24,000 bases of DNA, taken from contig JAQWSL010000007.1 in assembly GCA_029243225.1 (NCBI GenBank), positions 20,790-44,789 of the forward strand, read 5' to 3'. Source of the stretch: Flavobacteriales bacterium (lineage in GTDB: Bacteria; Bacteroidota; Bacteroidia; Flavobacteriales_D; Parvicellaceae). Positions 1,166 to 17,928 of the stretch are shown here, piece after piece. Below the pieces are notes generated by a model that was not told the DNA's origin, did no database searches, and saw only the letters and a list, made by a program, of their open reading frames with translations. The position numbers and the translations under genes were made by a program. Within the stretch, counting starts at the first letter, position 1. Every line of letters begins with the position of its first letter.

Positions 1166-4108
1166 TTATTTCTTTTCTGCTTTTTCTATGGCATCTATGA
1201 AAACTCTTTGAATTCGAGTTCTAATATTCATTGTTATTAATTTTTTGTTTTCTGCATCTGGATATACTCTGTTGGAAAGAAAAACATAGACAAAACCATT
1301 TTCTGGATCGGCCCAGGTTAAAGTTCCTGTAAACCCAGAATGTCCGAAGCTACTGTAAGAAGCACAATTAAAACATGTAGGACCTCCTGCACTCCCTCTT
1401 ACAGGTTTGTCAAAAGCAATGCCCCTTCTATTTTTATTGCTTAGATAATATGGCGAGCTGGTAAATAGTTCAACTGTTTTTTTGTCGATAAGTGTGTCGC
1501 CACCATAAATCCCATTTTGCATAAATAGTTGCATCATTACCCCTAAATCATTAGAGTTAGAGAAAAGTCCAGCATGCCCTGCAACCCCACCCATCATCGC
1601 AGCTCCCTGATCATGAACATCTCCATGAATGAGCTGTTTTCTAAATGTTTGATCATCCTCAGTTGGAATAATTCGATCTAAGGACCATTTATTTCTTGGG
1701 TTATAGCCTATGTTTTTCAAACCTAATCTTGAATAATAGGTTTTGTCTACATATTCATCTTGAGACACTTTGGTAATATCTCTTATCATTTCGTTAACAA
1801 AATAATACCCTACATCGCTATATTTATATTTCTTTACTTTTAATAAATCAGTGTTAAGTATTCGTTTGAATATAGTATCTCGATAGTTTTCATTTATGAA
1901 TAAATTATTAGCTACACGTTTGTTAAAATAGGAAGACTTTTTAATGCTGTATATTTCATACTTAGGTTTTCCTTTATATAAAGTTTTAATGTAAAATGGT
2001 ATCCAAGGTGTTAATTTTGCTTGATGAGTAAGCATTTCTTTAAGAATGATTTTACCGTAGGCAGTAGAATCTACAAGCTGTGGAAGATAATCTCCTAGAG
2101 ATGAATCTAATGAGATTTTATCTTTTTGATGAAGATCCATAAGCGCTGCAGCTGAACTTGCTATTTTAGTAATAGATGCTAAATCATAAATATCTGAATT
2201 GTCAACAGGTTTTGATTTTTGGTCATAAGTATGTTTCCCATATGATTTATGAAAGAATACTTGACCGTCTTTAGCTGCATAAATTTGGCAACCAGGAAAC
2301 ACTTTTTCTTTGAAAGCTTCTTCAATAATACTGTCAATTTTAAGAAGATTTTTTGAATCTATTCCTATAGACTCTGGATATACATAAGACAATCTATTTT
2401 TAGAAGTAGAAAGCCCAAAACCTTCCTTGAAATTTTCATTAATAGAAACTGGTAATTTTCCTTTAGCACTTATTCCTCCAAATAATAATTGTCCTGTTAA
2501 CTCGTTTGGTGTTTTTTCATCTTCATAAGCAATTAAAACTCCATCTACTTTAGATATAGATTTAAATTTTGAAAGTGCGTAAGGAGATCCAAAAATATTT
2601 AAAATAATTTTGCTATGATCAACTATATCTTCACATAGCTGGTCTACTATTTTTGATAAACCAAAATTTTGATATGAATTTTGATTCATTTGGTAGACAT
2701 TAAGAATTATTAAATTATGATTCTTCAAATTCATAATTAAAGAGCTTAATTGCTCGTCAGTAGCTCTTTTTTGAATATTATATTCGTAAGACCTACAGTA
2801 TTTATTTATAGAGTTTTTAAATTCTTTTGAATTAGATTCTCCAATATTTACAGTAGCTATATTTAGGGTGTCAAGTCTAGTTATTGGAATAACATTGTTG
2901 TTTTTTATAACTGTTAATGCGTTTTTGTATAGCTCATGATTTAAATAAGAGGCATTGTAGGTATTCAAATCAGGAACTAAGTTTTCTTTATTTACTTTTT
3001 TATGTGAATATAATTTTAACCACTTTTTAGCGCTTAGTATTTTTTTAACTTTTTGGTCAATTTCATTAATTGTTAGTTCTGAGCTTTCGATTGCTTTTTT
3101 TATTTCAGCCACTGCTGCAGGTATGTCTTCTGGAATTAGTAAAATGTCATTTCCCGCTTTAAGAGCTTGAACATCGAGTTTTCCTTTTTCGTAGAATGCA
3201 CTAACGCCTCTCATGTTTAACCCATCTGTAAATATTAAACCTTTAAAGTTTAATTCTTTTTGGAGCAAGTCAGTTACTACTTTTTTGGAAAGAGTTGATG
3301 CCTTATTAGGTGTATTATCTAGTGTTGGTACATACAAATGAGCAACCATCATGGCTTTTAACCCACTATCAATTAATAGTTTAAAAGGATGTAATTCAAC
3401 AGAGTCTAATCTTTTTTTATTATGATATATAATGGGAAGTGTTTTATGTGAATCGCTGTCTGTATCTCCATGACCTGGGAAATGTTTGGCATTGGCTAAA
3501 ATATTTTGATTTTGTAGCCCTTTCATGTACATGAGCGATTTTTTAGCAACTTTATTTGGGTTTTCTCCAAAAGACCTAGAGTTTATTACAGGATTATTTG
3601 GGTTGTTATTAATGTCAACTACTGGTGCCATATTCATATTAACACCTAATCTTTTGCATTGTTTTCCAATTTCTTGTCCCATTTGATATATGAGATTGTT
3701 GCTTTGAATTGCTCCTAATGTCATTTGTTTAGGGAAAGCTATTGTACTATCTAGTCGCATGGATAGTCCCCATTCAGCATCTATTGAAATTAATAGTGGT
3801 ATTTTAGAAACGGATTGAAACTTATTAGTTAAATGTGCTTGTTTGTATGGACTTCCTTGGTAAAATATTATTCCGCCTATGTGGAATTCCTCTATCAATC
3901 TGGATATTTCTTTTTCGTGAGATAAATCCTTGTTAGAATAAGCAGCAACCATAAAAAGCTGACCTATTTTTTCATTAAGAGATAGGGAGTTAAAAACACT
4001 GTCGACCCAATCATTTTTTTCATCACTTGCTTGAATAATAGTTGATGAAAACATAAATGTGCTTACTAATAAGCTTTTAAAAATGATGTTTAACAATGTT
4101 TTATTCAT
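1166..4108 (-). CDS. Secreted fusion of a glycoside hydrolase family 3 (NagZ-like beta-N-acetylhexosaminidase) N-domain and a beta-lactamase-fold serine hydrolase C-domain
   Basis: N-terminal signal peptide (MNKTLLNIIFKSLLVSTFMFSSTIIQA). GH3 motifs KHFPGHGDTDSDSHKTLP and GLIFTDGLNM. C-terminal half has the serine-hydrolase triad of motifs: SITK (SxxK, nt 2165-2176), YSD (YxN-like) and HSG (KTG-like). ATG start at 4106-4108. Confidence 0.9.
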   Translation of the reverse strand: MNKTLLNIIFKSLLVSTFMFSSTIIQASDEKNDWVDSVFNSLSLNEKIGQLFMVAAYSNKDLSHEKEISRLIEEFHIGGIIFYQGSPYKQAHLTNKFQSVSKIPLLISIDAEWGLSMRLDSTIAFPKQMTLGAIQSNNLIYQMGQEIGKQCKRLGVNMNMAPVVDINNNPNNPVINSRSFGENPNKVAKKSLMYMKGLQNQNILANAKHFPGHGDTDSDSHKTLPIIYHNKKRLDSVELHPFKLLIDSGLKAMMVAHLYVPTLDNTPNKASTLSKKVVTDLLQKELNFKGLIFTDGLNMRGVSAFYEKGKLDVQALKAGNDILLIPEDIPAAVAEIKKAIESSELTINEIDQKVKKILSAKKWLKLYSHKKVNKENLVPDLNTYNASYLNHELYKNALTVIKNNNVIPITRLDTLNIATVNIGESNSKEFKNSINKYCRSYEYNIQKRATDEQLSSLIMNLKNHNLIILNVYQMNQNSYQNFGLSKIVDQLCEDIVDHSKIILNIFGSPYALSKFKSISKVDGVLIAYEDEKTPNELTGQLLFGGISAKGKLPVSINENFKEGFGLSTSKNRLSYVYPESIGIDSKNLLKIDSIIEEAFKEKVFPGCQIYAAKDGQVFFHKSYGKHTYDQKSKPVDNSDIYDLASITKIASSAAALMDLHQKDKISLDSSLGDYLPQLVDSTAYGKIILKEMLTHQAKLTPWIPFYIKTLYKGKPKYEIYSIKKSSYFNKRVANNLFINENYRDTIFKRILNTDLLKVKKYKYSDVGYYFVNEMIRDITKVSQDEYVDKTYYSRLGLKNIGYNPRNKWSLDRIIPTEDDQTFRKQLIHGDVHDQGAAMMGGVAGHAGLFSNSNDLGVMMQLFMQNGIYGGDTLIDKKTVELFTSSPYYLSNKNRRGIAFDKPVRGSAGGPTCFNCASYSSFGHSGFTGTLTWADPENGFVYVFLSNRVYPDAENKKLITMNIRTRIQRVFIDAIEKAEKK

Positions 4109-4272
4109 TGAAATGAATGAGTTTTTCTATAAAATTAGTATTACCCCTAATTGAAAGATTTGATTCTTTTATTTATTATTAACGTAAGAGTGTGAAGTGT
4201 ATTTTGCTATTTAATTATTAATGACAAGTCTTATTTTATTTATATTGTATAATTCTTAAAGAAAATCGTTTG

Positions 4273-7200
4273 ATGAATTATAGATTAAATATTGTTTTCT
4301 TGTTCTATTTAATCAATGTTGTTGTTTATTCACAACATACAAATTTTGAATTTTTTAGAACTAGTCCTGATGGATTAAGCCAATCAGTAGTTACAGATGT
4401 TATGCAGGACTCTAAGGGCGTGTTGTGGTTTTCGACTGAAGATGGATTGAATAGTTTTGATGGTGATGTTTTTAAGAGATTTTACAGGGAAGATGGTTTG
4501 TTGAGCCATGAAATTGAATGTGTTGTAGAAGGAGCTAATGAAGATTTATGGGTAGGCACACGAAGAGGATTAAATCTTATTAACAATAATAAGGTTGTTG
4601 CTCTTCCTTCGAAATTATTGGAGTCTTTGAAAAAATATACACACATAAATAAATTGTATTTTCTTTCAGATAGTTCTCTTGTTATAGCAACAGGCAGATT
4701 CAAGTCTAAATTACACATTTGGAATCAAAAGGAGATGAATGAACTGATCTTGCCATTAGAAGGTGAATACATTGTTAATTGTCTTATTGAACATGAAAAT
4801 GTATTATTTATTGGTACAAATAAAGGACTTGTTGCTTTTAAAGATGGTGTTTTTCAAGTGTTTAATGAGTCAAAAGATTTGCGAACTAATATTGTAAATT
4901 GTTTTTCAATTTTTAAAGACAATTTAATTATTGGTTCTAATAAGGGGTTGATTTTTCACAAAAACGACAGTTTTTTTTATGATTCTACTTTTTCAAATTT
5001 TGAAAATAAAAATATTTCAAATTTATCAAGCCATAACAATAGTCTTGTTTTTTCAGAATTTAAAGAGTTTGTTTACCTATATAAGGATTCTGAAATTCAA
5101 ATATTTGATAAATCTCAAGGGCTGTCATCTACTAAAATCAATGATTTGTTAATAGACAGAGAAGGTTCAATTTGGATTTCTTTTTCTGGTTTTGGGTTAG
5201 CTAAGTTTAGAGAAAAACCATTTATATCTTATGATGAATTTAATCGATTTGAATTAGGGCATGTAAACTCTATGTTTGTAGATAATGCTGAGAAGTTGTG
5301 GGTCGGAAGTACAAAGGGATTACAAGTTAAATTAAAGAATGAATTATATTTTAAAAGATATCTACCCAAGTATGATTTTGCCAATTGCAAAATTAAGTTC
5401 AATTCTGTTTCTTCTATTCTTGAAGATGTAAAAGAAAGAATTTGGATTTGTACTCCTATGTCAGCTATCATTATTTATGAAAACGATTCTTTTAGACAAC
5501 TAAATATTAAAGAAAATGAGTTAACCAATCTTGGTTTTGATCCTGAAACTGTTAAAAATATATTGAGTGTGATTAATGATCCTAGAACATTATGTTTAGA
5601 CAACAATGGATTTTTATGGATAGGCTCGTTTACAGATGGTATTGTTGTCTTAGATAAGAATCTAAATTGCATAAAATATTTAAGTAAAAAGAAAGGGCTC
5701 CGTGGAGATTTAATTCAATGTTTTTTTAAAGATTCTTATGGTAATATTTGGATTGGTTCAGCTAGTGGATTAACAAGAATATCAGGTGATTCAATTGAGA
5801 TATTTGATGATTATAAAGAGTTGAAAAAATCTACTTATTCAATAAAAGAGGATCATTTTGGTAATATTTTAGTTGCCACAGATTTTGGATTATATAAGTT
5901 ATTTCTAAATGATGACCAATTAATTAAACAAGTAAAACATTATGATATAAAAAATGGATTAGCTTCTTCTGTTGTTTATGCAATGGAAATAGATGATGCT
6001 GGTAATCTATATCTTGGAACAACTCTAGGAGTTGACAGGGTCACTAAAGAGTCATTTAATGATTATAACATTGTAAACAAGCATTATGGACCAGACGAAG
6101 GCTTTAAAGGGGTGGAATGCAATACCAATGCAAGTTTTAAGGATCACAATGGAGATTTATGGTTTGGAACTAATTCTGTTTCTAAGCTTAGAATTAATCT
6201 TGACGTTATCGATACTATTAAGCCAAATATATTTATTAATGATATTCGTTTAAATTATTTAAATGTTCCTTCATGGGATTTAAAAAATGGTTCTACTCAA
6301 AATATTTTAGGTTTTGATAAGCCCGTGTTTTTTTATAATCAAAATCATTTAACATTTGATTATAAAGCAATTACTAGTGTAAGTCCAAAAAACATAAGGT
6401 ATTCTTTTAAAATAGAGCCAATAGATGTAAAATGGAATCCTAAAACAAAACAACGTTTTAGTACTTATTCTAATTTGTCACCAGGTAGCTACACCTTCAA
6501 AGTTAAAGCTGAGAATATTGATAAAACTGAAAGTGAAATCGTTTCTTACTCTTTTCAAATTGCAAAACCTTGGTGGGATGAGTACTGGTTTTATTTAATT
6601 GAAGTATCCGCTGGGTTGTTATTAATTTTTGGTTTTATTTCAATTAGAGAAAGAAGGTTAAAGTTGAATCAAATGATTCTTGAGAAAAAAGTAAAGCAAA
6701 GAACATCTCAGTTAAATGCTGAAAAAGTAAAAGTTGAATCTCAAAATAAGGAAATTAAGAAAAGTATAAATTATGCGAGAAGAATACAGAACTCCATTCT
6801 TCCAGATGAAAGTTTAATGGATGATTATTTTGAAGATTTCATGGTTTTCTACCAACCAAAAGACATTGTTGGAGGTGATTTCTATTGGTTTAGGTGCTTT
6901 GGGAATATAAGTGTTATTGCATCAGTTGATTGTACAGGTCATGGAGTGCCTGGAGGGTTTATGAGTATGATGGGGAGTTTGTTGTTAGATAAGATTGTTC
7001 AATCACATAATCTAGAGACTTCTAAAATATTAAAAGATTTAAATTCAGAAATTGTTAGAGTATTGGATCAAGAAAGTGGTGGTGAAATTCAAGATGGTAT
7101 GGATATTTCATTATGTGTAATTGACAAGCAAAACAGGAAAGTTTCATTTAGTGGAGCCAGAAACGGAATAACAATAATAAGAGCAGATAAAATTGAGAAA

Positions 7201-7509
7201 TATGATGCAGATCTTTTTTCTGTTGGTGGTTCCTATACTAAAATTAGTAGAGAGTTGAAAAGAGATTTTAAGAGCTATTCTATTGATTTAGAACCTAATG
7301 ATTGGTTATATATGTATACAGATGGTTATTACGATCAGCTTGGAGAAAAGAAAATGAGATCTTTAGGTCTTAAGAAATTTGAAGAAATCATTAAAGAGTG
7401 TAGTTCATTCAAAGAAAATAAGAATCAATTTTTAAGCGAAAAATTTAATTTATGGAAAGGGGAGCTGCCACAAATTGATGATTTACTTATTATAGGATTT
7501 AAAGTTTAA
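4273..7509 (+). CDS. Membrane sensor phosphatase: signal/TM, beta-propeller (Reg_prop) repeats, Y_Y_Y domain, TM helix, coiled coil, PP2C/SpoIIE-type Ser/Thr phosphatase (SiaA/RsbU-like)
   Basis: Repeated xxDxxGxLWxGTxxGL propeller blades (e.g. DSKGVLWFSTEDGLNSF, NEDLWVGTRRGLNLI, HNGDLWFGTNS). Y_Y_Y signature IRYSFKIEPIDVKWNP...YSNLSPGSYTFKVKAEN. TM WFYLIEVSAGLLLIFGFISI (about nt 6590-6650). PP2C region nt 6766-7506 with INYARRIQNSILP, GGDFYWF, DCTGHGVPGGFMSM, DGMDISL, YTDGYYDQ, QIDDLLIIG. The track starts at TTG 4270; I prefer the adjacent ATG at 4273. Confidence 0.9.
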   Translation: MNYRLNIVFLFYLINVVVYSQHTNFEFFRTSPDGLSQSVVTDVMQDSKGVLWFSTEDGLNSFDGDVFKRFYREDGLLSHEIECVVEGANEDLWVGTRRGLNLINNNKVVALPSKLLESLKKYTHINKLYFLSDSSLVIATGRFKSKLHIWNQKEMNELILPLEGEYIVNCLIEHENVLFIGTNKGLVAFKDGVFQVFNESKDLRTNIVNCFSIFKDNLIIGSNKGLIFHKNDSFFYDSTFSNFENKNISNLSSHNNSLVFSEFKEFVYLYKDSEIQIFDKSQGLSSTKINDLLIDREGSIWISFSGFGLAKFREKPFISYDEFNRFELGHVNSMFVDNAEKLWVGSTKGLQVKLKNELYFKRYLPKYDFANCKIKFNSVSSILEDVKERIWICTPMSAIIIYENDSFRQLNIKENELTNLGFDPETVKNILSVINDPRTLCLDNNGFLWIGSFTDGIVVLDKNLNCIKYLSKKKGLRGDLIQCFFKDSYGNIWIGSASGLTRISGDSIEIFDDYKELKKSTYSIKEDHFGNILVATDFGLYKLFLNDDQLIKQVKHYDIKNGLASSVVYAMEIDDAGNLYLGTTLGVDRVTKESFNDYNIVNKHYGPDEGFKGVECNTNASFKDHNGDLWFGTNSVSKLRINLDVIDTIKPNIFINDIRLNYLNVPSWDLKNGSTQNILGFDKPVFFYNQNHLTFDYKAITSVSPKNIRYSFKIEPIDVKWNPKTKQRFSTYSNLSPGSYTFKVKAENIDKTESEIVSYSFQIAKPWWDEYWFYLIEVSAGLLLIFGFISIRERRLKLNQMILEKKVKQRTSQLNAEKVKVESQNKEIKKSINYARRIQNSILPDESLMDDYFEDFMVFYQPKDIVGGDFYWFRCFGNISVIASVDCTGHGVPGGFMSMMGSLLLDKIVQSHNLETSKILKDLNSEIVRVLDQESGGEIQDGMDISLCVIDKQNRKVSFSGARNGITIIRADKIEKYDADLFSVGGSYTKISRELKRDFKSYSIDLEPNDWLYMYTDGYYDQLGEKKMRSLGLKKFEEIIKECSSFKENKNQFLSEKFNLWKGELPQIDDLLIIGFKV

Positions 7510-7853: not shown

Positions 7854-8942
7854 TTAAATGTATTTAGGTATAAAAATACCCATATTTAAGTAAATTCCAT
7901 TGTCAATGTTATGAATTTCAAAATCTATTTTTGAATGATTATACCTTCTAATATCTATTAATCCAACTCCTGCACTGTTGTTCTCAATAAAGGAATTTTC
8001 TTTTAAGGCTTTAAGGTACTGAGTTGTTAGTTCTCCAACAGAATAAGCATTTATCTTAGAAATGAATTCTTCCATTTCAGCATAATCTCCACTTTTCAGA
8101 AAATTACCTGTACTCATGTAAAAGCCATCTTTGTTTTTAAAAATACAAAACGACCCATGCAGAACGTTATTTACTTTTTTCCCATGCCGAGAAATATTCT
8201 GAATCAGTTCAACTCCAGTATGAAACATTCTAAAATAATTAACATTTTTTTTCCTTGAATATTTTGGAATATTAGCTTTTAAAATAGCCAACAAAGCTTT
8301 AATGTTTTCTTTAGAAAAATTGCCATTATAAAAAAACATAACATCATTTTTTCTAAGCATAGAGTAAATTTCAATATTTTCTTCAATTTTATTTTTTTCA
8401 ATTAGCTGTAAAGTTTCACCTTTTAATTTGGCTAAATCAATTTGATAGCTGAATTGATACGAATCCGAACTTAATTTTTGGAAATCTTTTTGTATTGGGT
8501 TTTTTGATTTTCTAGCCATTTCTATTAAGCCAAGTCCACCGCCACCCTTTTCTGTAAAAGCACCATTTTTTAATATGTCTCTATATAATTCTTTTAATTG
8601 ATTCTCATCAAGAGAATTCAATTCGGAGAGCCTAGTACTCAAAAATTCATATGCTGTTAATCCAATCTTATTTGATGAGAAAATATGGATGCTATCTTCT
8701 AAGTTTCTTACCCCAAAACAGTCATTTTTCACTTTCTCATCTGAGTATCGGACAATGTTTTGAAAAACTTCAACCATTAAAAAAGATAATTTTTTCTTTA
8801 CTGCCTGACTTGATTCATGTTTAGCAAGAGATACAATAAATTCTGAAAAATGATCATTTAGTAATCCATTGTAATAAATACTTAGAGTATCTCTTCTGAA
8901 ATAATCTTTAATTTTAAATATTTTATTAAGATAGCTTTTCAA
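7854..8942 (-). CDS. Tandem double SiaB-like GHKL-fold Ser/Thr protein kinase (two RsbW/SpoIIAB/SiaB-type domains in one chain)
   Basis: The two halves align with each other. N half (about nt 8403-8942): IYYNGLLN, VEVFQNIVRYS, FSSNKIG, EKGGGGLGLIEMARKS. C half (about nt 7857-8402): FFYNGNFS, VELIQNISRHG, MSTGNFL, NNSAGVGLIDIRRYN. ExxxNxxxH/Y resembles the GHKL N-box and the Gly-rich GLGL/GVGL the G2 box. The first in-frame start is TTG at 8940-8942, with an upstream stop at 8958-8960 and no nearby ATG, so the start is slightly uncertain. Confidence 0.7.
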   Translation of the reverse strand: MKSYLNKIFKIKDYFRRDTLSIYYNGLLNDHFSEFIVSLAKHESSQAVKKKLSFLMVEVFQNIVRYSDEKVKNDCFGVRNLEDSIHIFSSNKIGLTAYEFLSTRLSELNSLDENQLKELYRDILKNGAFTEKGGGGLGLIEMARKSKNPIQKDFQKLSSDSYQFSYQIDLAKLKGETLQLIEKNKIEENIEIYSMLRKNDVMFFYNGNFSKENIKALLAILKANIPKYSRKKNVNYFRMFHTGVELIQNISRHGKKVNNVLHGSFCIFKNKDGFYMSTGNFLKSGDYAEMEEFISKINAYSVGELTTQYLKALKENSFIENNSAGVGLIDIRRYNHSKIDFEIHNIDNGIYLNMGIFIPKYI

Positions 8943-9084: not shown

Positions 9085-10575
9085 TTAAATACATTTAACT
9101 TCTAGGGTTAATTTATTTAGTATTTCAACCATAGCCAAGGTATCTAATTTGCAGTATTCTAGTAAATCTTTTCTCGCGTTTTGATTGTTGCCTTTAAAAG
9201 TTCCGCTCATCATTTGAGAAAAGGTGTGACTAGCCATACCGCCCTCCTTAATTGTTAAACTTTCATAAGATAAATTGTTTATCATAGCAGGTAGAACGTT
9301 TTTAATTGAGTAAGAGCCTTTCATTTCTTTTTTATAGTACCATTTTTTTTGGAATGGAACCATTAAGTCTTTAATCCTAGAAATAAGTTGTTTTAATTCG
9401 ATTTCATACTCAGGAAATGCTTCTGCTAACTGTTTTATTTTGCTGCTTTCAAAACTTTTGTTATAAACAATAATATCCCCTGATCCTCTACAGGATTTAA
9501 TTAAATTTTTAATAAAATTTAATCTAGGATCAGAGCCATCTGCAACTGCCAAATGTTCATAATGAGTGGTTTTACCATTCCTTTCTTTTTGAATGTGTAA
9601 AGAAAATTGAAAAACCATGTGTTCATAAGGTTTTGAGTTGTTGAAAATTGGCACAGCAGAACTAAATGTTTCAAAATCTAGATAATATAAAGGGAGTTGA
9701 AGTTCTGAAATGAAATTTGATATTTTAATTTCATTAATTATTTTTTCGTTTGATTGCTCACATGAAACTTGAATTTTTTGATTCTTACTAAGTGGATAAT
9801 CTGTTGGGATATCATCTATTTTTAGAATTCCCTTTTTAAAAAGATCAAATTTCTTTTCTTGACTAAGGTTAGAAATATCAAAAACTGAATATTTAGGAAT
9901 GTTTTCCCAGCAATTGCCAATGAAATCACAGTTGTATGGTGATGTACAATGGGGACCTATATCTTTTGGAGGAATGTCTTTTTGATTTAATATTTTTTTT
10001 TGATTTTCAATCTCTTTAGAAATATCCATCTCTATTTTTGAAATTTCATCTTTTACTGAAGTAACTGTAAAGAGTTTTTCTAAATCGAGCTCATTTTTTT
10101 TAACATATTTATTATTAATGTGAACAATAAAAACATCTTCTAATTTTAGACCCGAATTTTCAATAACATAAGATTGAATTGCCGCATCATTAATGTGAGT
10201 TTTAGAAATACTTGTTGAGCTTTTAACTTCATAAGCTTTCCAACCATTTTCATTTTTAACTAAAATGTCTAAAATTGCTAATACACCATTAAATTGAAAT
10301 GCAGCTTCGTAAATTACTTTTTTACCTCCGTGAATACACAATTGAGTTTTTTTTATTGCATCTTCAAAATTATAAAATGTTTTAGTAGTACAATCTATTC
10401 CATTGGGGAATAGCTGCTGAGCTAATTCACCGACCATATCACCTTGATTGAAAATTGCTTTCTGCATTTCAGAAAGTTCATCTTTAAGGTCTCTATTGTG
10501 TTTGTTTAAGTAGAGTGATTTTGAACATTTTAAACCTCTTATAAAGGTTGATTTGGACAATACATGTTTTTGCAT
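9085..10575 (-). CDS. DUF2779-family protein: N-terminal Cas4/RecB-like PD-(D/E)xK nuclease fold with a 4-Cys cluster, plus a C-terminal DEDD-like (RNase H fold) exonuclease-like domain
   Basis: The N-terminus MQKHVLSKSTFIRGLKCSKSLYL is typical of DUF2779 as I recall it. D...EVK nuclease motif (LAILDILV...WKAYEVKSS, about nt 10211-10285). Cys17 plus CTSPYNCDFIGNC (nt 9907-9948). C-terminal YYLDFETF (DxE), VYNKSFES and EYCKLDTLAM (Yx3D). Confidence 0.75.
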   Translation of the reverse strand: MQKHVLSKSTFIRGLKCSKSLYLNKHNRDLKDELSEMQKAIFNQGDMVGELAQQLFPNGIDCTTKTFYNFEDAIKKTQLCIHGGKKVIYEAAFQFNGVLAILDILVKNENGWKAYEVKSSTSISKTHINDAAIQSYVIENSGLKLEDVFIVHINNKYVKKNELDLEKLFTVTSVKDEISKIEMDISKEIENQKKILNQKDIPPKDIGPHCTSPYNCDFIGNCWENIPKYSVFDISNLSQEKKFDLFKKGILKIDDIPTDYPLSKNQKIQVSCEQSNEKIINEIKISNFISELQLPLYYLDFETFSSAVPIFNNSKPYEHMVFQFSLHIQKERNGKTTHYEHLAVADGSDPRLNFIKNLIKSCRGSGDIIVYNKSFESSKIKQLAEAFPEYEIELKQLISRIKDLMVPFQKKWYYKKEMKGSYSIKNVLPAMINNLSYESLTIKEGGMASHTFSQMMSGTFKGNNQNARKDLLEYCKLDTLAMVEILNKLTLEVKCI

Positions 10576-10610
10576 GTATGTAAATTACAAAATCAAATAA
10601 GATTTTATTA

Positions 10611-11762
10611 CTATTTGTTGCTAATAAATTTTGAAGAAAAAAGATTTCGTTTGTTATCCTCAATTAATATAAAATAGATACCTTTTTTATAGTAATTGTT
10701 TAGCATGATTTGATCATTGCTAATGTCTTTGATAAATGTAATTTCTTTACCTAAATTATTGATGATCTTTAAGCGGTAAGGTTTCTTAATTTTATTAGTT
10801 ACTTCAATCACGAAATTTGTTTCAATTGGATTGGGCATTACTTTAATGTATTTAGATTCTTGTATGTTATTTTCATTAATTGAAGAAACAATGCCATTTA
10901 ACATACTAACAACTTCGTTAGTATTCCCTAAATCGTAAAAATCTACAGTTAAAAAATTGGGAAATTTGTTTTTTTCAATTTGACATTGAAGCGCTCTATT
11001 AATAAAAAAAGGATTTGAATTAGCTACAGACGATGCATTTTCATCTCCTGTTCCAAGTATAGTTGTTACAAAATGATTGAAAATAAATAAATCATTTATT
11101 GAATCTCCTCTGTTAAAGTCACAATTAAAGTCATTTTGATTATTTACTGAATAATGTGTTTCTACTGCATAATCCCATACATAATGATACCATTGTTGAT
11201 TAGCTGTTGCATCATCAACATCTGAAAAAATTACTAATCTGGTGTTGTTGTTTATCATATTTTGTAAAGTAGGCCACGAACTTGTTGTGTCGTGTGTATA
11301 AAGAAAAGTGTTTAACCCAGATTGATTAATTACACTTTCAATAGAATTTGCATCTGTATAGCATTCAAAAATAATAGTAACAACTTCATTCGTGTTGGTG
11401 GCTAAAAACTGATTAATTTGATTTAAGTAATCAATTAAAGGATTAGACCCGAGAATTGCAGATCCATGATATACCATAGGTGTTCCACCACTATCGTAAA
11501 CATCAAGCATTAATGCTCTTACACCATTATTAAGTTGTGTCACAATGTTGAAATTCTGATTTGGTAAACTAAAATTACCTTCTGCTGAATTAAATGAATT
11601 GTGTGTTGTAAGATACGCTACAGTATTGTAGGTTTTGTTGCATAAACTAGCAGAGCCATTGCATTGAGCTTTTGCTGTAAAAGAAAATAATATTACTATA
11701 ATTGAGAAAATTAATTTCAATGAATAAGTTTTAAATTTCAACACCAATAACAAGAACATCAT
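10611..11762 (-). CDS. Secreted PI-PLC X-domain-like phosphodiesterase with a T9SS type A C-terminal sorting domain
   Basis: Signal peptide ending FSFTAKA-QC. PLC-like TIM-barrel motifs YLTTHNSFNS, GVRALMLDVY and MVYHGS. C-terminal 80 aa is a Por_Secre_tail-like CTD. The ATG at 11762 overlaps the upstream gene by 32 nt. An in-frame TTG at 11741 would give a more canonical signal peptide (MKFKTYSLKLIF...) and an 11-nt overlap. Confidence 0.8.
   Translation of the reverse strand: MMFLLLVLKFKTYSLKLIFSIIVILFSFTAKAQCNGSASLCNKTYNTVAYLTTHNSFNSAEGNFSLPNQNFNIVTQLNNGVRALMLDVYDSGGTPMVYHGSAILGSNPLIDYLNQINQFLATNTNEVVTIIFECYTDANSIESVINQSGLNTFLYTHDTTSSWPTLQNMINNNTRLVIFSDVDDATANQQWYHYVWDYAVETHYSVNNQNDFNCDFNRGDSINDLFIFNHFVTTILGTGDENASSVANSNPFFINRALQCQIEKNKFPNFLTVDFYDLGNTNEVVSMLNGIVSSINENNIQESKYIKVMPNPIETNFVIEVTNKIKKPYRLKIINNLGKEITFIKDISNDQIMLNNYYKKGIYFILIEDNKRNLFSSKFISNK
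10614..10853 (-). other. T9SS type A C-terminal sorting domain (Por_Secre_tail-like) of the PLC-like protein
   Basis: KYIKVMPNPIETNFVIEV...GIYFILIEDNKRNLFSSKFISNK. The PNP-x-x-x-hydrophobic start and the GxY-hydrophobic-K/R ending are typical of type A CTDs. Confidence 0.75.
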
Positions 11763-14700
11763 CTAATTGTTCTTCATTTTTTTTCCAAGAATTGAACTTT
11801 TCCTTAAAGATATCCTTTTGTTTATTTAATGGAGTTTTGTCTAATTCTAAAATTAATTCTTTAAATCTTCTAATTAGAAATTTTTTATTTTTTTCCCCTC
11901 CAAATTGATCAATATACCCATCAGAGAACATGTAAATTCTATCTCCTTTCTTAATAGGAATCTCTAGCTCAATTGGTGTCTCATTTCTTTGATTCATCTC
12001 TCCAACAGAACACGGCATGGATTCGAAAGTATGTATTTCTTCCCCATCCCATAAAATAATGGGTCTCCTTGCACCAGAAAAAGTAAATATATTTTCATTT
12101 TGGTTAAAGGCACAGATTGATAAATCTATACCATCTTTCTGAAAAGAATCTCCACTTCTATGAATTGAATTATAGATTCCAATGTCTAAAAGTTCTAAAG
12201 CCAAGCCCGGAGAGTTTACTTTTGGATCTAAAATAATTTGATTCATTAACTCACTTCCTAACATCGAAAGAAATGCTCCAGGAATTCCATGACCTGTACA
12301 ATCGGCACATGCAATTATTAGGTAATCACCTTTTTTCTTAAACCAATAAAAGTCTCCACTTACGATGTCTCTTGGTTGGTTGTAAATAAAAAAGTCAGAA
12401 AAAAAAGATTCTAAAATTTTCACATTTGGAAGCACTGCTTGTTGAATGTTCTTTGCGTAATTAATGCTATCTGTAATGTTGTTATTTTTGAGTTCTATGA
12501 TTTCTTTTTGTTTGGTCACTTTTATTTTTTCTTTATTTAATTCTCTTGTGCGTAATTCAACTTTTTCTAATAATAAAACACGATTTTTCTCTGCCTTTAT
12601 GCTTCTGAATTTTAATACTAGATAAAACGAAATGAGAACTACAAAGCAAATTAATATTATGAACCATTCTCTTTCCCAAAAGGGAGGGATGATTTCAAAT
12701 TCATAACTGATTAAATCAGATTCAACCATATCTCCATTGGCCCCTTTAATATATAAAGTGTATTTTCCTGAAGGTAAGTAAGAATAGATTGCTCTATTTC
12801 TTTTACTCCAAGGAGACCAGTCTTTATCAAAATTTTTTAATTTATAGCTGTATGTAACTTGATGGGGATTTCCAAAATGCAAACCAATGAATTCAAATGA
12901 TAGATGATTCTCTGTATGTTTAAACTTCTTCTTAGAATTTTCAATTTCGTTTTTAAGAAATAATTTTTTACTTGTAAAATGCATTAAAGGCGGAATAGAA
13001 TCAAAAGTTATTTCTTTAGCGTTACACTTAATTGCTCCCTTAACTGTACCAAACCATAAATCACCATTTTTATCTTTGAATTTTGCATTTTGATTTGTTT
13101 CAACTCCAGTGAAACCTTGATTTATTCCATAATGTTTGAATAAGTTTTTATTTCCAGTTGAATTAGAACCTGTTGTGTCACTGATAACATCTAATCCAGA
13201 ATTTGTGCCTACCCAAACTTTACCGAAATTATCTGCAATTATTAGGTAAGGGTTGTTAGAGCTTAATCCGTTTTTAGAATCAAACTGTATGAATTTTGTA
13301 CCATCGTATTTAAAAATACCTCCTCCGATAGTACCTACCCAAATATTTCCATTAATGTCTTCAGTAATACTTCCAGCTCTTAGATTAAGGAGTCCATCTT
13401 CATGGTTTAGTGTTTGAAAACCCTCACCATCCCAAACTGAAACCCCAGCATCATCAGAACCAAAATATACTAATCCCTTTTTTGAGGAGAATACTGTCCA
13501 AAACTTGTTGCTACAAAGACCGTCAGATTTAAAGAATGATTCAATTTGAATTTCTTTTAGAGATATGTCAATTTTGCTAATACCATTGTTATAGCTCGCC
13601 AGCCAAATAAATCCATTAATGTCTTGACAAATACTAATTATATAATTGTCAGATATTCCATCCTCAGTTGTTAAATGCTGAACTAGATTGAAATTTTCAT
13701 CAATTATATAGACTCCATCATTAGTGCCAAGCCATATGTTATTTTTATTATCTTCAAAAACAGATCTTAAATTATTTAATTTAAAATTGAATAATTTACT
13801 TACATGGATTATGTCAGTAGTTGATTTTCTCTTTTTATTATCAATTAATATTACATCTAATTCACTTTTTGCACCAACCCATAATCGGTTGTTGTGATCC
13901 ATTAAAAGTGTTGTAACTTGATTGTTCTGAAGCCCATAAAATTTATCGTAAGCCTGAAACTTTGCTGTAATAACTTGCGAAACACCATCGCCTTCAGAAC
14001 CGATCCATAAATTGTTTTCATTGTCAAAAAGTATGGTGTTTATCTTGTTTGAGAGTAAATTATTTTTTGTAGTTAATGCTTGGATATAATTTTCTTTAAA
14101 AATTAGAGCACCATTTTCTTTATTTGAAACATAAATTTCATTGGTTTTTGAAATTGCAATATCTGTAAATGTGTTTTCAAGGCTGATTTCTGAAACAACT
14201 TCATTTTCTTTGAAGAAAGTTAATCCTTTTGATGAAATAACAATTAATTCATTATTAGTGTCCCAGTCAAAGTCATAAACTATTGATTGGTCCAATAGTT
14301 TTGATTTGAATTTTAAATTCTCATCTAGAATAATAAGTCCATTACTTGTTGCTATATATAGTTGTTTGTTATTGGATTTAATTTCATTAAGTCTAGTGAG
14401 TTTGTTAGTGTCAACAGAGATAACATTTTTAATGTGTATTGAGTCGTTTGTTAATTCTAAATTGAAAATACCATCAGAGGAGCTAATTCCCATCACGCCA
14501 TTCTTCCAATTTGTTAAAGCAATAATATCGGAGTTTAATTCTTTAGGATGATTGTTAAATATCTTGTTTTTGGAAATACAAGAAAAACCATCATATCTAT
14601 GTCCAGTCCAAATGTTACTGTAATTATCTTCGCAAATAGCTTTAACATGATTATCTGCTAAATTGTTTTTTTGACTGAAAGTGTTAAAATCTATTCCGTT

Positions 14701-14880
14701 AAACCTTGAAACCCCTCCTTGTGTTCCAAGCCAAATGAACCCTTTTGAGTCTTGAAATATATCGTATACACTAGATTGAGGAAGTCCTTCAGCTAAATTG
14801 AAGTTTTTAAAATTGAATTGTTGTGCATATGAATTTAATATGAGATGAATACAAATAAGTATTACAAAACTTTTTTTCAT
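11731..14880 (-). CDS. Second membrane sensor phosphatase, paralogous in architecture to 4273-7509: signal peptide, beta-propeller repeats, Y_Y_Y, TM, coiled coil, PP2C/SpoIIE phosphatase
   Basis: Signal peptide MKKSFVILICIHLILNSYAQ. Propeller blades (DSKGFIWLGTQGGVSRF, NENNLWIGSEGDG, KNGDLWFGTVKG). Y_Y_Y VTYSYKLKNFDKDWSPW...YSYLPSGKYTLYIKGAN. TM WFIILICFVVLISFYLVLKF. PP2C region nt 11734-12465 with INYAKNIQQAVLP, SGDFYWF, DCTGHGIPGAFLSM, DGIDLSI, FSDGYIDQ, QLDDVLVIG. Confidence 0.9.
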   Translation of the reverse strand: MKKSFVILICIHLILNSYAQQFNFKNFNLAEGLPQSSVYDIFQDSKGFIWLGTQGGVSRFNGIDFNTFSQKNNLADNHVKAICEDNYSNIWTGHRYDGFSCISKNKIFNNHPKELNSDIIALTNWKNGVMGISSSDGIFNLELTNDSIHIKNVISVDTNKLTRLNEIKSNNKQLYIATSNGLIILDENLKFKSKLLDQSIVYDFDWDTNNELIVISSKGLTFFKENEVVSEISLENTFTDIAISKTNEIYVSNKENGALIFKENYIQALTTKNNLLSNKINTILFDNENNLWIGSEGDGVSQVITAKFQAYDKFYGLQNNQVTTLLMDHNNRLWVGAKSELDVILIDNKKRKSTTDIIHVSKLFNFKLNNLRSVFEDNKNNIWLGTNDGVYIIDENFNLVQHLTTEDGISDNYIISICQDINGFIWLASYNNGISKIDISLKEIQIESFFKSDGLCSNKFWTVFSSKKGLVYFGSDDAGVSVWDGEGFQTLNHEDGLLNLRAGSITEDINGNIWVGTIGGGIFKYDGTKFIQFDSKNGLSSNNPYLIIADNFGKVWVGTNSGLDVISDTTGSNSTGNKNLFKHYGINQGFTGVETNQNAKFKDKNGDLWFGTVKGAIKCNAKEITFDSIPPLMHFTSKKLFLKNEIENSKKKFKHTENHLSFEFIGLHFGNPHQVTYSYKLKNFDKDWSPWSKRNRAIYSYLPSGKYTLYIKGANGDMVESDLISYEFEIIPPFWEREWFIILICFVVLISFYLVLKFRSIKAEKNRVLLLEKVELRTRELNKEKIKVTKQKEIIELKNNNITDSINYAKNIQQAVLPNVKILESFFSDFFIYNQPRDIVSGDFYWFKKKGDYLIIACADCTGHGIPGAFLSMLGSELMNQIILDPKVNSPGLALELLDIGIYNSIHRSGDSFQKDGIDLSICAFNQNENIFTFSGARRPIILWDGEEIHTFESMPCSVGEMNQRNETPIELEIPIKKGDRIYMFSDGYIDQFGGEKNKKFLIRRFKELILELDKTPLNKQKDIFKEKFNSWKKNEEQLDDVLVIGVEI

Positions 14881-14920
14881 AATTAAATTTCCTTTTCACA
14901 AAGGTAATTACTTTAGTAAT

Positions 14921-16717
14921 TTAATATGTTTTTGCAATGGTTTTCGTTAGAAAACCTTTGTTTGTCACAATTGAAACAATATAAATTCCTGAATTAAAAC
15001 CTTGTAAATTTATTTTCGAAGAATTACTATTAAAATCTTTGATAGTCACAATTTTTTTACCTGATATGTCGAAAATATTTATTTCGTTAATTTCTAGATT
15101 AGAGCTCCAATTAATGAAAATTTCATTTTTTGTTGGATTTGGAAATACCGACCATAAGTTTTGAGTGAAATTTTCAATTCCTACTGTATATATATATGGA
15201 TTCGATGTATAAATGCAACCATCTGAATTTATTATACTTACAGTAAAGTCTCCAGAATTTTGAGGAAAATATGTTGCTGAATTAGCTCCAGAAATAGGCG
15301 TTCCATTATTGTTCCATTGAACAGTCCAACCTAATGGTGCTGATGTGAACAATTCTAAATTTGAGTTAATATCAATAACAGGGCTTGTTGCAGTTGAATC
15401 ACAATATACCGCATAAATAGTATCTGATGATGTACCACAGCCATAATTGTTAAAAGCAATTAGGTGGTAATATCCTGAGTTTTCAATTGTATCTGTCGGG
15501 GAAGTGTGTCCTGCAATAATAGTGTCGTTCACATACCATTGTAAGCCGTACTGTGTAGAATCTGTAGATAAAACGTATAAATTGTTGTCAAATTCAATGT
15601 TGGGTTGTCCGGGAACATCATAAATCTGAATAGTATCATTGCTTAATATCGATGGTGATGGTAAGATTTGTAAATAATCTATAGTATAAGTAACATCTGC
15701 ATAGCTGCCAGCCGAACAATTTGAACAAGAATTTAGATTGATGTTATGAGATCCTATGTAATCATCTGATCCATAAGTGAATTCAGCTGTATTGGATTGA
15801 GCAGCAGATTCATCAGCATCCATTACAGAAATTTCATAAGTTTTGTTTGGGTCAAGATTAATGTTCATTGTCCAGGTAATGGGGCCGTTATTATTATATT
15901 CAAATGTTGACTGGTAAATTAAGTTCCCATCTTCGTAAAGTATGAAATAGGGGTCTGGCATATTTCCATTTAACAATTCCCATCCCCAAGGAGCACCTGT
16001 CCAACTTTCAGTAACATTTTCAATAGTAAAGCTTGTTAGTGTATAAACATCGACAGTGTCAATACTATTGTATGCTTGATAAGTAACATGGTATTCTCCA
16101 GGAGAATTGTATTGTTGAGTCGATGGGTTTTCAGCTGTAGTAGTATTTCCATTATCAAAATCCCAAAAATAAGCAGCTAATCCAGGGTTGTTATTAGTAA
16201 AGTCAATACTTACTGGAAAGCAACCAGATGAATTGTTCATTGAAAAACCAGAATTACCAGAGCCAGGGTTGTTTTGATTCACAGCCATAAAAACAGAAAA
16301 TGAAATTGGAATGTTATTTATTGTTTGACCAGAGGCAATAACATTAACAAGGATGCTAACTTCGATATCATAGTTTCCAGCTAATAAGGGTGTTCCAAAG
16401 ATGTTTATACAGCCATATATGTTACTCTGAGGGTCATAATTACAACCACCTGCAGAGTTGTCACATTCCCAGTCTAATCCAACAGGGAGTGCAATGTTGA
16501 CAATTTGAAAGTTTGTAATAGTTGCTCCCATTGTGTCTAAAATCATAACAAAGGTAACATCTTCACTATATGGATTTCCGATAAATCCATCTGGCAAAGA
16601 GTCAGGATAAATTCCAGGTTGAGTATATGAATAATCTATCGTACATGTTTGAGAATAGAATAAATTAGAATTAAAAATTGAAAAAACAAGAAGTAAAAAT
16701 GCTATAAATTTTTTCAT
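14921..16717 (-). CDS. Cell-surface/secreted PKD-domain protein with a T9SS type A C-terminal sorting domain (adhesin-like)
   Basis: Signal peptide MKKFIAFLLLVFSIFNSNLFYSQ. PKD-like segment YFWDFDNGNTTTAENPSTQQYNSPGEYHVTYQAYN. Cys-rich Ig-like repeats. C-terminal type A CTD. Confidence 0.85.
   Translation of the reverse strand: MKKFIAFLLLVFSIFNSNLFYSQTCTIDYSYTQPGIYPDSLPDGFIGNPYSEDVTFVMILDTMGATITNFQIVNIALPVGLDWECDNSAGGCNYDPQSNIYGCINIFGTPLLAGNYDIEVSILVNVIASGQTINNIPISFSVFMAVNQNNPGSGNSGFSMNNSSGCFPVSIDFTNNNPGLAAYFWDFDNGNTTTAENPSTQQYNSPGEYHVTYQAYNSIDTVDVYTLTSFTIENVTESWTGAPWGWELLNGNMPDPYFILYEDGNLIYQSTFEYNNNGPITWTMNINLDPNKTYEISVMDADESAAQSNTAEFTYGSDDYIGSHNINLNSCSNCSAGSYADVTYTIDYLQILPSPSILSNDTIQIYDVPGQPNIEFDNNLYVLSTDSTQYGLQWYVNDTIIAGHTSPTDTIENSGYYHLIAFNNYGCGTSSDTIYAVYCDSTATSPVIDINSNLELFTSAPLGWTVQWNNNGTPISGANSATYFPQNSGDFTVSIINSDGCIYTSNPYIYTVGIENFTQNLWSVFPNPTKNEIFINWSSNLEINEINIFDISGKKIVTIKDFNSNSSKINLQGFNSGIYIVSIVTNKGFLTKTIAKTY
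14924..15157 (-). other. T9SS type A C-terminal sorting domain of the PKD protein
   Basis: LWSVFPNPTKNEIFINW...GIYIVSIVTNKGFLTKTIAKTY. Confidence 0.8.
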
Positions 16718-16872
16718 TATTTAGAGTGATAAATTCTATATAAAGCTAAAATATTTAAAGTAAAGTAAAAAATACAAGCTAAATATTTCAAAAAATGAAT
16801 GATTATAAAGTTGTAAATGTTTTATTTTTTCATCGACTAAAAAAATAAACTAAAGGCGTTTTGTTGTAGAAA

Positions 16873-17928
16873 TTAGAGATTATTTGTCTTAATAAATCCT
16901 TTGGATCCTCTAGATTTAAAAAGTGCATTTCTGGTATTTGCCCATTGAAACGAAATTTCAAATCCACCAGAATTTGCTTGGCTAATTTCTGAAACTGAAA
17001 GTTCGTAAAGCAATCCAATTTTACAACTTCCAAATTCAACCATAATTTGAGGCGCAATGGCATCTTTAAGGCGATGAATTAAGCCAAAGCCAAAGTATGA
17101 TTCTGTATATATTCCTGTGTATTTAGTTCCATTTCTAAGCCTTGCTTTCATCATGGCATTTATTAATAACATTTGATGAGGTCCTTGATTCATGAAAACA
17201 AAAGAAACTGCTGAAGCCCATTCAGAATTTGGTATATCAAGCTGCGCACCTGAATGAATTACAAGTTTAGCATCTAGCTTATCTTCATTACCATTAGAGA
17301 ATTTTAATTGAGGTTGAGAAACATGAAAATAAGCAACACCAGCATAGATATTGGATAGCTCATTTCTAGTTAAATTATTTTTTTTACCGCTATAACTGTA
17401 AAAAACTCCAGCGCCAAAATCTTCATGAAAGAAAGAAGAATTTGAAGAAGATTCATTAGAGTTAATGTTAGAATCAAAAGAAGTTCCGTCAAATTGGTTA
17501 CCCCAACTTAAATTGCCTAATTTTCCTGTTCTTTGTACTGCCCCCATTTGAATTGCTGCCGAAACAGTTTGATTTTCAGCAATTGGAATAATTCCGGAAA
17601 TGGAAAAATTTAGTTGGTTAATTCCAAATTGACCTTCACCTGCTATATCATTGAAAAAAGACAAACCTAATCCTAAATAACTCTTTTGTTTTCCGTTGTC
17701 ATTCTTTAAAAGATTCATGTCAAATGAAAATTGAGAAGTCATATAAGATTTATCAATGCCTAGCCACTGTTTTCTGTTCGATATAGTTACTCTTTCCCAA
17801 CCATTGAAAACACCTATTGATGCAGGGTTGATAAGTTGAGGTACAAAAGTGCTTTGAGCAAAATGTACATCTTGTGCTTTAAAATTAAAGCAGGTGAAAA
17901 TTAATAGTAAATAAATTAACTTTTTCAT
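16873..17928 (-). CDS. PorP/SprF-family type IX secretion system outer-membrane protein
   Basis: N-terminus MKKLIYLLLIFTCFNFKAQDVHFAQSTFVPQLINPASIGVFNGWERVTISNRKQWLGI is the canonical PorP/SprF opening (QD-HFSQ-like ... NPA ... YR.QW). The start ATG overlaps the TGA of the upstream type B CTD gene (ATGA at 17925-17928). Confidence 0.9.
   Translation of the reverse strand: MKKLIYLLLIFTCFNFKAQDVHFAQSTFVPQLINPASIGVFNGWERVTISNRKQWLGIDKSYMTSQFSFDMNLLKNDNGKQKSYLGLGLSFFNDIAGEGQFGINQLNFSISGIIPIAENQTVSAAIQMGAVQRTGKLGNLSWGNQFDGTSFDSNINSNESSSNSSFFHEDFGAGVFYSYSGKKNNLTRNELSNIYAGVAYFHVSQPQLKFSNGNEDKLDAKLVIHSGAQLDIPNSEWASAVSFVFMNQGPHQMLLINAMMKARLRNGTKYTGIYTESYFGFGLIHRLKDAIAPQIMVEFGSCKIGLLYELSVSEISQANSGGFEISFQWANTRNALFKSRGSKGFIKTNNL

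Follow-up and report, generated by a model that had tools for sequence, protein, structure and literature searches.

The closest described counterpart of the locus analyzed here is the SiaABCD system of Pseudomonas aeruginosa, in which the kinase SiaB phosphorylates its partner SiaC at Thr68 and the PP2C phosphatase SiaA reverses this modification (PMC7647112; PMC7278518). SiaB is a dimer that assembles with SiaC into a 2:2 complex (PMC7647112; PMC7278518), and Glu61 has been predicted to be its catalytic residue (PMC7647112). Our subject is a gene for a protein of 362 residues with two SiaB-like domains in tandem, which lies directly upstream of a gene for a SiaC-like (DUF1987) protein in a stretch of 24,000 nucleotides from a Flavobacteriales bacterium of the family Parvicellaceae (GenBank assembly GCA_029243225.1, contig JAQWSL010000007.1, positions 20,790 to 44,789 of the forward strand). 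This whole stretch is referred to as the window, and all coordinates without a locus name are counted from its first nucleotide.

A wider circle of related systems is built around SpoIIAB, RsbW, and UsfX, whose Bergerat-fold kinase domains likewise act as dimers in partner-switching modules that also include a PP2C phosphatase and a small protein as phospho-acceptor. To our knowledge, the partner-switching kinases of the SpoIIAB, RsbW, and SiaB types have all been described as non-covalent homodimers, and the only known output of SiaC proteins is a diguanylate cyclase, represented by SiaD in the SiaABCD system.

Two SiaB-family domains in a single polypeptide

In the tandem protein, a single chain holds the SiaB kinase domain twice, in diverged copies whose similarity goes far beyond chance. 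Residues 1–185 (N-terminal or N half) and 186–362 (C-terminal or C half) aligned with 22% identity over 162 columns in a BLASTP comparison (E-value 3e-8), and when 102 full-length homologues were used to build a profile for each half, the two profiles matched over 153 columns with an HHalign probability of 99.8% and an E-value of 1.5e-28. An AlphaFold2 model of the full chain, generated from the alignment of the same 102 homologues (mean predicted local distance difference test score, pLDDT, 85.7; predicted template modelling score, pTM, 0.86), gave both halves an identical predicted topology of 11 helices (H) and strands (E) in the order H-E-H-H-E-E-H-H-H-E-E. These results bear out an earlier annotation of the window made without database searches (hereafter the sequence-only reading), which had proposed two homologous halves in tandem from a list of motif pairs; exactly these pairs (YYNG/FYNG, VEVFQNIVRY/VELIQNISRH, SSN/TGN, and GGGGLGLIEMARKS/SAGVGLIDIRRYN) are brought together by the BLASTP alignment of the halves.

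Membership in the SiaB family is evident from a subfamily hidden Markov model (HMM), the fold, and the motifs of the protein. Two stretches each are matched by Pfam DUF6272 (PF19788; E-value 1.8e-49, 167.3 bits with a cut-off of 26.6) and by the NCBIfam model NF038262 (SiaB family protein kinase, SiaB_fam_kinase; 186.8 bits with a cut-off of 85), and a profile of the SiaB family is about equally distant from the N half (E-value 1.6e-20) and the C half (3.6e-19, both by HHalign). The P. aeruginosa SiaB–SiaC complex (6KKO) is the only solved structure that was matched by sequence, and its SiaB chain (6kko_A; SiaB is PA0171) is also the top PDB fold match of the AlphaFold2 model, with an E-value of 8e-7 and a template modelling (TM) score of 0.83 normalised to the target. 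The next fold matches are the catalytic and ATP-binding domains of histidine kinases, pyruvate dehydrogenase kinases, SpoIIAB, and UsfX, with Foldseek probabilities of up to 1.0 (1l0o, 1th8, and 1til for SpoIIAB; 8ih8 and 8jzt for UsfX; HK853 and pyruvate dehydrogenase kinases); for the group of SpoIIAB, RsbW, and UsfX, probabilities are 0.97–1.0 at target-normalised TM scores of 0.5–0.7. Judged by its modelled structure, each half is a SiaB-like member of the Bergerat/GHKL fold. At the level of sequence, neither Pfam HATPase_c nor HATPase_c_2 matched the 362 residues at an E-value of 0.01 or lower. A weak match over two stretches to the model of slr1658-superfamily regulators (NF047703; E-value 1.2e-11) points to a related domain superfamily, with scores that stay below the cut-offs for this model (44 bits versus 100) and for the cyanobacterial equivalog NF052618 (35.7 versus 200); in parallel, the SiaC-like protein has weak similarity to slr1659.

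The tandem protein also differs from SiaB, which is a single homodimerising domain of 180 residues from Proteobacteria, in that two diverged domains are fused in a protein of Bacteroidota with only about 20% identity to SiaB. The 120 best relatives of SiaB itself range from 144 to 183 residues, whereas the window protein has 362 residues and two domains.

Distribution and age of the tandem architecture

A word-indexed protein search found 657 relatives of the window protein. Among the best 120, 102 are 340–380 residues long and share 31–88% identity with it; their source assemblies, which are independent of one another, belong to Parvicellaceae, Crocinitomicaceae, Flavobacteriales, and Bacteroidia, and some of the proteins carry the label "SiaB family protein kinase" from the Prokaryotic Genome Annotation Pipeline (PGAP). 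When the N half alone was used for an exhaustive HMMER search of 1.84 billion cluster representatives, 2314 matches were obtained at an E-value of 1e-3 or lower. The nearest 150 of them, each standing for a cluster at 50% identity, include 148 tandem proteins of about 335–390 residues or longer fusions, recognizable by two matched stretches, and the remaining two resemble truncated fragments. Tandem proteins occupy the top of every ranked list, and the few shorter database entries of 200–308 residues look like truncated or mis-started gene calls.

When one genome of each GTDB species was scanned, a relative turned up in at least 547 of these species-level genomes, and the best 80 belong almost entirely to Bacteroidota (Flavobacteriales, Cytophagales, Bacteroidales, Marinilabiliales, Chitinophagales, and Sphingobacteriaceae), including the cultured Cytophagales Nafulsella turpanensis and Cesiribacter andamanensis. 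The nearest relative among the matches listed, with 89% identity, is encoded by the metagenome-assembled genome of an uncultured marine Flavobacteriales bacterium (locus L004). A metagenome-assembled genome labelled Gammaproteobacteria (L075) carries the sole non-Bacteroidota label among the 80 best loci, which may be due to a binning error or horizontal transfer. The tandem form is thus the standard, phylum-wide form of this kinase in Bacteroidota. It is not rare, and it represents a variant within a known system, not an isolated curiosity.

Typing of the halves with separate HMMs showed an N-type domain followed by a C-type domain in 253 of 260 proteins. Four others are of type N-N (P0150, P0224, P0227, and P0251) and one is of type C-N (P0191), and these may be early-branching lineages or independent duplications. 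In a neighbour-joining tree from score-based distances, the N halves form a clade of their own in 193 of 200 bootstraps, which means that the duplication is older than the diversification of the family and that the two positions have been evolving separately since. The distances themselves (1.21 between N and C halves, 1.32 between N halves and SiaB, 1.26 between C halves and SiaB) are too close to separate a duplication within the lineage from a fusion of old paralogues.

Both the nearest relative and more distant ones share a start codon other than ATG with the gene in the window, where it is TTG at 8940–8942: the same start is found in L004 (6001), L005 (5995), L012 (5995), and L016 (5992), homologues at 47–89% identity, and in L006, conserved N-terminal codons run upstream of the first usable start, beginning at ATT. 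A conserved start other than ATG could hold translation of the kinase low.

Conserved residues and divergence of the two halves

We compared the putative nucleotide sites in a joint alignment of 233 N halves and 233 C halves of tandem proteins together with SiaB, from which the percentages of residue conservation in the two halves are taken. The Glu, Gln, and Asn of the N-box motif E-x-x-Q-N (E61, Q64, and N65 in SiaB) are present in 100%, 100%, and 100% of the N halves and in 100%, 98%, and 100% of the C halves. A second Asn, found in the SAGN motif of SiaB and in SSN and TGN of the two halves (Asn91 and Asn280), is fully conserved in both; Asn91 occupies the G1-box position of GHKL proteins and would contribute to nucleotide binding. 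The core A-G-x-G-L of the Gly-rich lid, likewise shared with SiaB, is conserved at 90–100% in N halves and 76–99% in C halves. Since both halves keep the residues of the nucleotide site, both probably bind ATP.

The sequence-only reading had described an N-box that is intact only in the C half, with a Tyr in the N half where the C half has His, and a lid that is richer in Gly in the N half (GGGGLGL versus SAGVGL). Its residue statements are right for the window sequence (Tyr66 and His253), but its idea of an N-box lost from the N half fails in the family alignment, given the full conservation of N-box Glu and Asn in both halves. At the position of Tyr66 and His253, N halves have His in 90% and Tyr in 10%, C halves have His in 91% and Tyr in 8%, and the proven kinase SiaB has Tyr69, so that Tyr is an ordinary variant and the difference between His and Tyr does not discriminate active from inactive domains. 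By these residues neither half looks like a dead pseudokinase, and if one of them is less canonical, it is the C half.

An asymmetry of the halves is nevertheless real and kept across the phylum, though it lies elsewhere than in the N-box, namely in the lid, the evolutionary rates, and the separate clade of the N halves. N halves retain the full SiaB-type lid (KGGAGLGLIEMARKS as compared to SGAGLGLLDIARKS in SiaB), which can be summarized as G-A-G-L-G-L-[IL]-[DE]-x-A-R-K-S. C halves are without the KGG and ARKS segments and the first Gly of G-x-G-x-G-L, and they have conserved residues of their own that are not conserved in N halves (N224 in 85%, G263 in 96%, and G279 in 82%). Mean pairwise identity is 35.7% for the N half and 29.6% for the C half, and the N half is the more similar one in 89% of protein pairs.

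The SiaC-like partner gene and the sensor phosphatases

Gene neighborhoods were studied in a set of 84 loci, comprising the window and 83 related loci. In 64 of them, the tandem kinase gene is immediately followed by exactly one SiaC-like gene, mostly with gaps of −28 to +19 nucleotides. The motif Y-F-N-[S/T]-S-S-A-K of the 64 SiaC-like orthologues aligns with the surroundings of Thr68 in SiaC, with Ser (84%) or Thr (16%) at the predicted acceptor position, which would be Ser62 in the window protein. Like SiaABCD, the locus combines a PP2C phosphatase partner with a DUF1987 partner whose candidate acceptor lies in a Y-x-N-[ST]-S-S motif. The score of the SiaC-like protein for the SiaC equivalog is 42 bits and thus below the cut-off of 150.

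Two variants of this arrangement deserve mention as observations in their own right. In locus L031, two adjacent tandem kinase genes (1920–3008 and 3405–4502) precede a single SiaC-like gene and two PP2C genes. Protein P0216 (513 residues) is a fusion of two DUF6272 domains with a SiaC domain, i.e., one SiaC per tandem kinase, known from a single database entry that could be a read-through artefact.

Genes of PP2C phosphatases are frequent neighbors as well, with 71 of them in 40 of the 84 loci and often several per locus. This suggests that many inputs converge on one SiaC-like protein, and the second sensor phosphatase encoded in the window (Table 1) is likely a second input to the same switch. 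SiaA receives its input through a membrane/HAMP module; here, the sensor is a beta-propeller with a Y_Y_Y domain, and several phosphatases are possible. The first phosphatase gene of the window converges with the SiaC-like gene in such a way that the sequence TTAA at 7506–7509 holds the stop codons of both, on the forward and reverse strand, respectively. In locus L002, four consecutive genes (9456–17098) are of the TPR-SpoIIE type, and protein P0253 (1371 residues) is a Y_Y_Y-SpoIIE-DUF6272x2 fusion, again from a single database entry for which read-through is possible. Between them, the natural fusions P0253 and P0216 connect the tandem kinase with both of its putative partners and count in favor of a common module.

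The locus differs from SiaABCD in its output, because none of the 15 window open reading frames (ORFs) that were scanned matched a GGDEF domain, the SiaD-type output, and only one among 854 ORFs from the 84 loci has a GGDEF motif. It differs from the SpoIIAB, RsbW, and UsfX systems in having a DUF1987 instead of a STAS acceptor, and Pfam scans of the window ORFs found no sigma-factor or STAS gene.

One other candidate for an output came up. Thirteen loci, namely L006 and 12 loci of Bacteroidales and Marinilabiliales (within L028–L058), have a gene for a REC-class III adenylate/guanylate cyclase. In the Bacteroidales and Marinilabiliales loci, this gene is found some 3.5 kb upstream of the kinase gene (e.g., L044, 824–1879 on the reverse strand). 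The known target of SiaC is a nucleotide cyclase with a fold related to that of class III cyclases. However, the opposite strand carries PBP1 and ADH genes between the cyclase and kinase genes, and we rejected this candidate as probably plain synteny.

A proposed partner switch and its alternatives

The whole of these observations is, in our view, best explained by a tandem protein that serves as the kinase of a SiaABC-like partner switch and is built as an intramolecular pseudo-dimer that has two nucleotide sites and an N half of canonical type, an account that we hold with moderate confidence. Two SiaB-family domains would have arisen by one ancient duplication and would pack together within one chain in place of the SiaB homodimer. 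The tandem kinase would then use ATP to phosphorylate the predicted Ser62 of the SiaC-like protein encoded downstream, while the sensor phosphatases (Y_Y_Y propeller plus SpoIIE) would strip the phosphate upon a signal, and the unphosphorylated SiaC-like protein would act on an output that is encoded outside the locus and is other than a diguanylate cyclase. The N half with its SiaB-type lid would be the canonical catalytic unit, and the C half with its remodelled lid is probably specialised and may have an altered activity or a regulatory role. A built-in pseudo-dimer, already suggested in the sequence-only reading, is reasonable since SiaB is a dimer that binds SiaC in a 2:2 complex and since the model has a defined arrangement of the two domains (pTM 0.86); by analogy, their interface would correspond to the SiaB dimer interface.

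Several results weigh against this account. The tandem protein reaches only 79.9 bits for the SiaB equivalog NF038264, whose cut-off is 225, and by this score, the number of domains, the sensor, and the missing SiaD, it is not SiaB proper. In about 14 of the 84 loci, the tandem kinase gene is an orphan among housekeeping genes, with enough flanking sequence and no detectable SiaC-like gene next to it. A mirror-tree analysis of 59 loci gave no preference of the SiaC-like protein for either half (r 0.79 with the N half and 0.80 with the C half; partial correlations 0.36 and 0.39). Furthermore, the loss of the first Gly and of ARKS from the lid means that ATP binding or catalysis by the C half may be impaired. 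Lastly, clustering of the 854 neighbor ORFs found no output gene at the loci, where only the kinase, SiaC, and PP2C families are broadly conserved.

A more far-reaching version of the partner-switch account seems possible to us, though we would not count on it. The SiaB-type kinase of Bacteroidota could be an obligate covalent asymmetric dimer that is kept phylum-wide, with the N half as SiaC kinase and the C half as an ATP-binding domain for regulation or docking of an output, integrating several sensor phosphatases and acting on an output other than the synthesis of cyclic di-GMP.

The strongest competitor, which we consider rather unlikely, would make one of the halves a pseudokinase without catalysis or a decoy, as the sequence-only reading had suggested. 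Most plausibly, this would be a C half that binds ATP or a partner, transfers no phosphate, and serves as a scaffold or allosteric sensor for the catalytic N half. The faster evolution of the C half would fit this explanation, as would its lid without the KGG and ARKS that the N half shares with SiaB, and the residues N224, G263, and G279 that are conserved in C halves but not in N halves. Yet across the 233 C halves there is no variation in the Glu of catalytic type, the Asn of Mg-binding type, or the second Asn, and the A-G-x-G-L core is largely kept, a degree of conservation that is unusual in degenerate pseudo-enzyme domains, and the substitution of His by Tyr fails as an argument given that SiaB has Tyr itself.

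Alternatively, the halves might bind two different partners, the SiaC-like protein on one and an output or phosphatase on the other, as the sequence-only reading had also contemplated. The distinction between the N and C positions, which is older than the diversification of the family and has been maintained ever since, speaks for such a split, and so do the lack of an output gene at the locus and the one SiaC domain in the fusion P0216, which hints at a 1:1 stoichiometry. There is also an established precedent for asymmetry, as the SpoIIAB dimer binds one sigma-F asymmetrically. However, the loci lend no support to this idea: each of the 64 that have a detectable SiaC-like gene has a single one, no family other than PP2C is conserved nearby, and the distances of the SiaC-like proteins correlate equally with both halves, while P0216 remains a single observation that read-through could explain. 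We therefore regard two different partners as improbable.

Finally, the chance that the protein is an artefact of two single-domain genes joined by a frameshift, sequencing error, or misassembly (an origin that the sequence-only reading had allowed for), or that its internal similarity is fortuitous, is negligible, because the same uninterrupted ORF of about 360 residues recurs in hundreds of independent assemblies including the cultured N. turpanensis and C. andamanensis, more than 250 homologues agree with it in length and domain order, and the HHalign E-value of the two halves speaks against chance.

Significance for annotation and for the study of partner switching

Although the tandem protein is already catalogued by Pfam and PGAP, full-text literature searches turned up nothing published about DUF6272, the tandem form, or a SiaABC-like module in Bacteroidota. 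For annotation, "SiaB family protein kinase" is a fair description, but neither "SiaB" nor "biofilm regulation" should be carried over to the protein. With its diverged halves, this natural single-chain form makes each site separately mutable and thereby the role of each protomer accessible. Hundreds of Bacteroidota species have the module, among them many marine Flavobacteriales as well as Bacteroidales from gut and sediment. Since it comes without the diguanylate cyclase that is the sole known output of SiaC, identification of its target would give access to a hitherto unstudied signalling pathway of this major phylum. Should the asymmetric covalent dimer be true, it would be, among GHKL Ser/Thr kinases, the first dimer that is both fused and subfunctionalised, and it would lead into an uncharacterised pathway that spans the phylum.

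Table 1. Coordinates of the tandem kinase gene, its predicted functional elements, and the associated genes in the window.
Feature	Position	Strand	Basis or remark
Tandem SiaB-family (2 x DUF6272) kinase gene, 362 residues	7854..8942	(-)	Single uninterrupted ORF; TTG start; stop codon 7854–7856; more than 250 full-length homologues
N half, residues 1–185, canonical and more conserved SiaB-like domain	8388..8942	(-)	HHalign with SiaB family; identity; N-half clade
C half, residues 186–362, diverged SiaB-like domain	7857..8387	(-)	HHalign with SiaB family and with N half
Inter-domain linker, about 14 residues, KLKGETLQLIEKNK	8388..8429	(-)	Between last strand of N half (161–171) and first helix of C half (186–198) in AlphaFold2 model; pLDDT 79–82
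N-box of N half, EVFQNIVRY (E58, N62, Y66)	8745..8771	(-)	Aligns with E61/N65/Y69 of SiaB
N-box of C half, ELIQNISRH (E245, N249, H253)	8184..8210	(-)	E and N 100% conserved
Asn91 (SSN) of N half, GHKL G1-box position	8670..8672	(-)	100% conserved; aligns with Asn of SiaB SAGN
Asn280 (TGN) of C half	8103..8105	(-)	100% conserved
Gly-rich putative ATP lid of N half, KGGGGLGLIEMARKS	8505..8549	(-)	Family consensus KGGAGLGLIEMARKS, 83–100% conserved; matches SGAGLGLLDIARKS of SiaB
Reduced lid of C half, AGVGLIDIRR	7944..7973	(-)	Only A-G-x-G-L-I-D..R conserved (76–99%)
SiaC-like (DUF1987) phosphoprotein gene, 113 residues	7506..7847	(-)	Pfam SiaC, E-value 5.5e-22; 7 nucleotides downstream of kinase gene
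Predicted phospho-acceptor Ser62 of SiaC-like protein	codon 7662–7664	(-)	YFNSSSAK aligned with LLYLNT68SSIK of SiaC
Sensor phosphatase, beta-propeller Reg_prop/Y_Y_Y plus SpoIIE-type PP2C	4270..7509	(+)	Pfam; convergent with SiaC-like gene, 3' ends overlap by 4 nucleotides
Second sensor phosphatase, same architecture	11731..14880	(-)	Pfam Reg_prop, Y_Y_Y, SpoIIE

Other genes of the window

The gene that directly precedes the kinase operon (9085–10575, reverse strand) codes for a DUF2779 protein whose Cas4-like and RNase H-like matches are weak; no link of this gene to the kinase module was seen in the other loci. At the other side of the module, 1166–4108 (reverse strand) encodes a protein of 980 residues with the N- and C-terminal domains of glycoside hydrolase family 3 and a serine beta-lactamase-like domain. 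A cluster of cargo proteins and components of type IX secretion extends over 10611–20444 on the reverse strand. It comprises a CotH-kinase/lamin-tail/CHU_C protein (17925–20444), PorP/SprF (16873–17928), a PKD protein with Por_Secre_tail (14921–16717), and a PI-PLC-X-domain protein with Por_Secre_tail (10611–11762), the called start of which overlaps the 3' end of the second phosphatase gene by 32 nucleotides.

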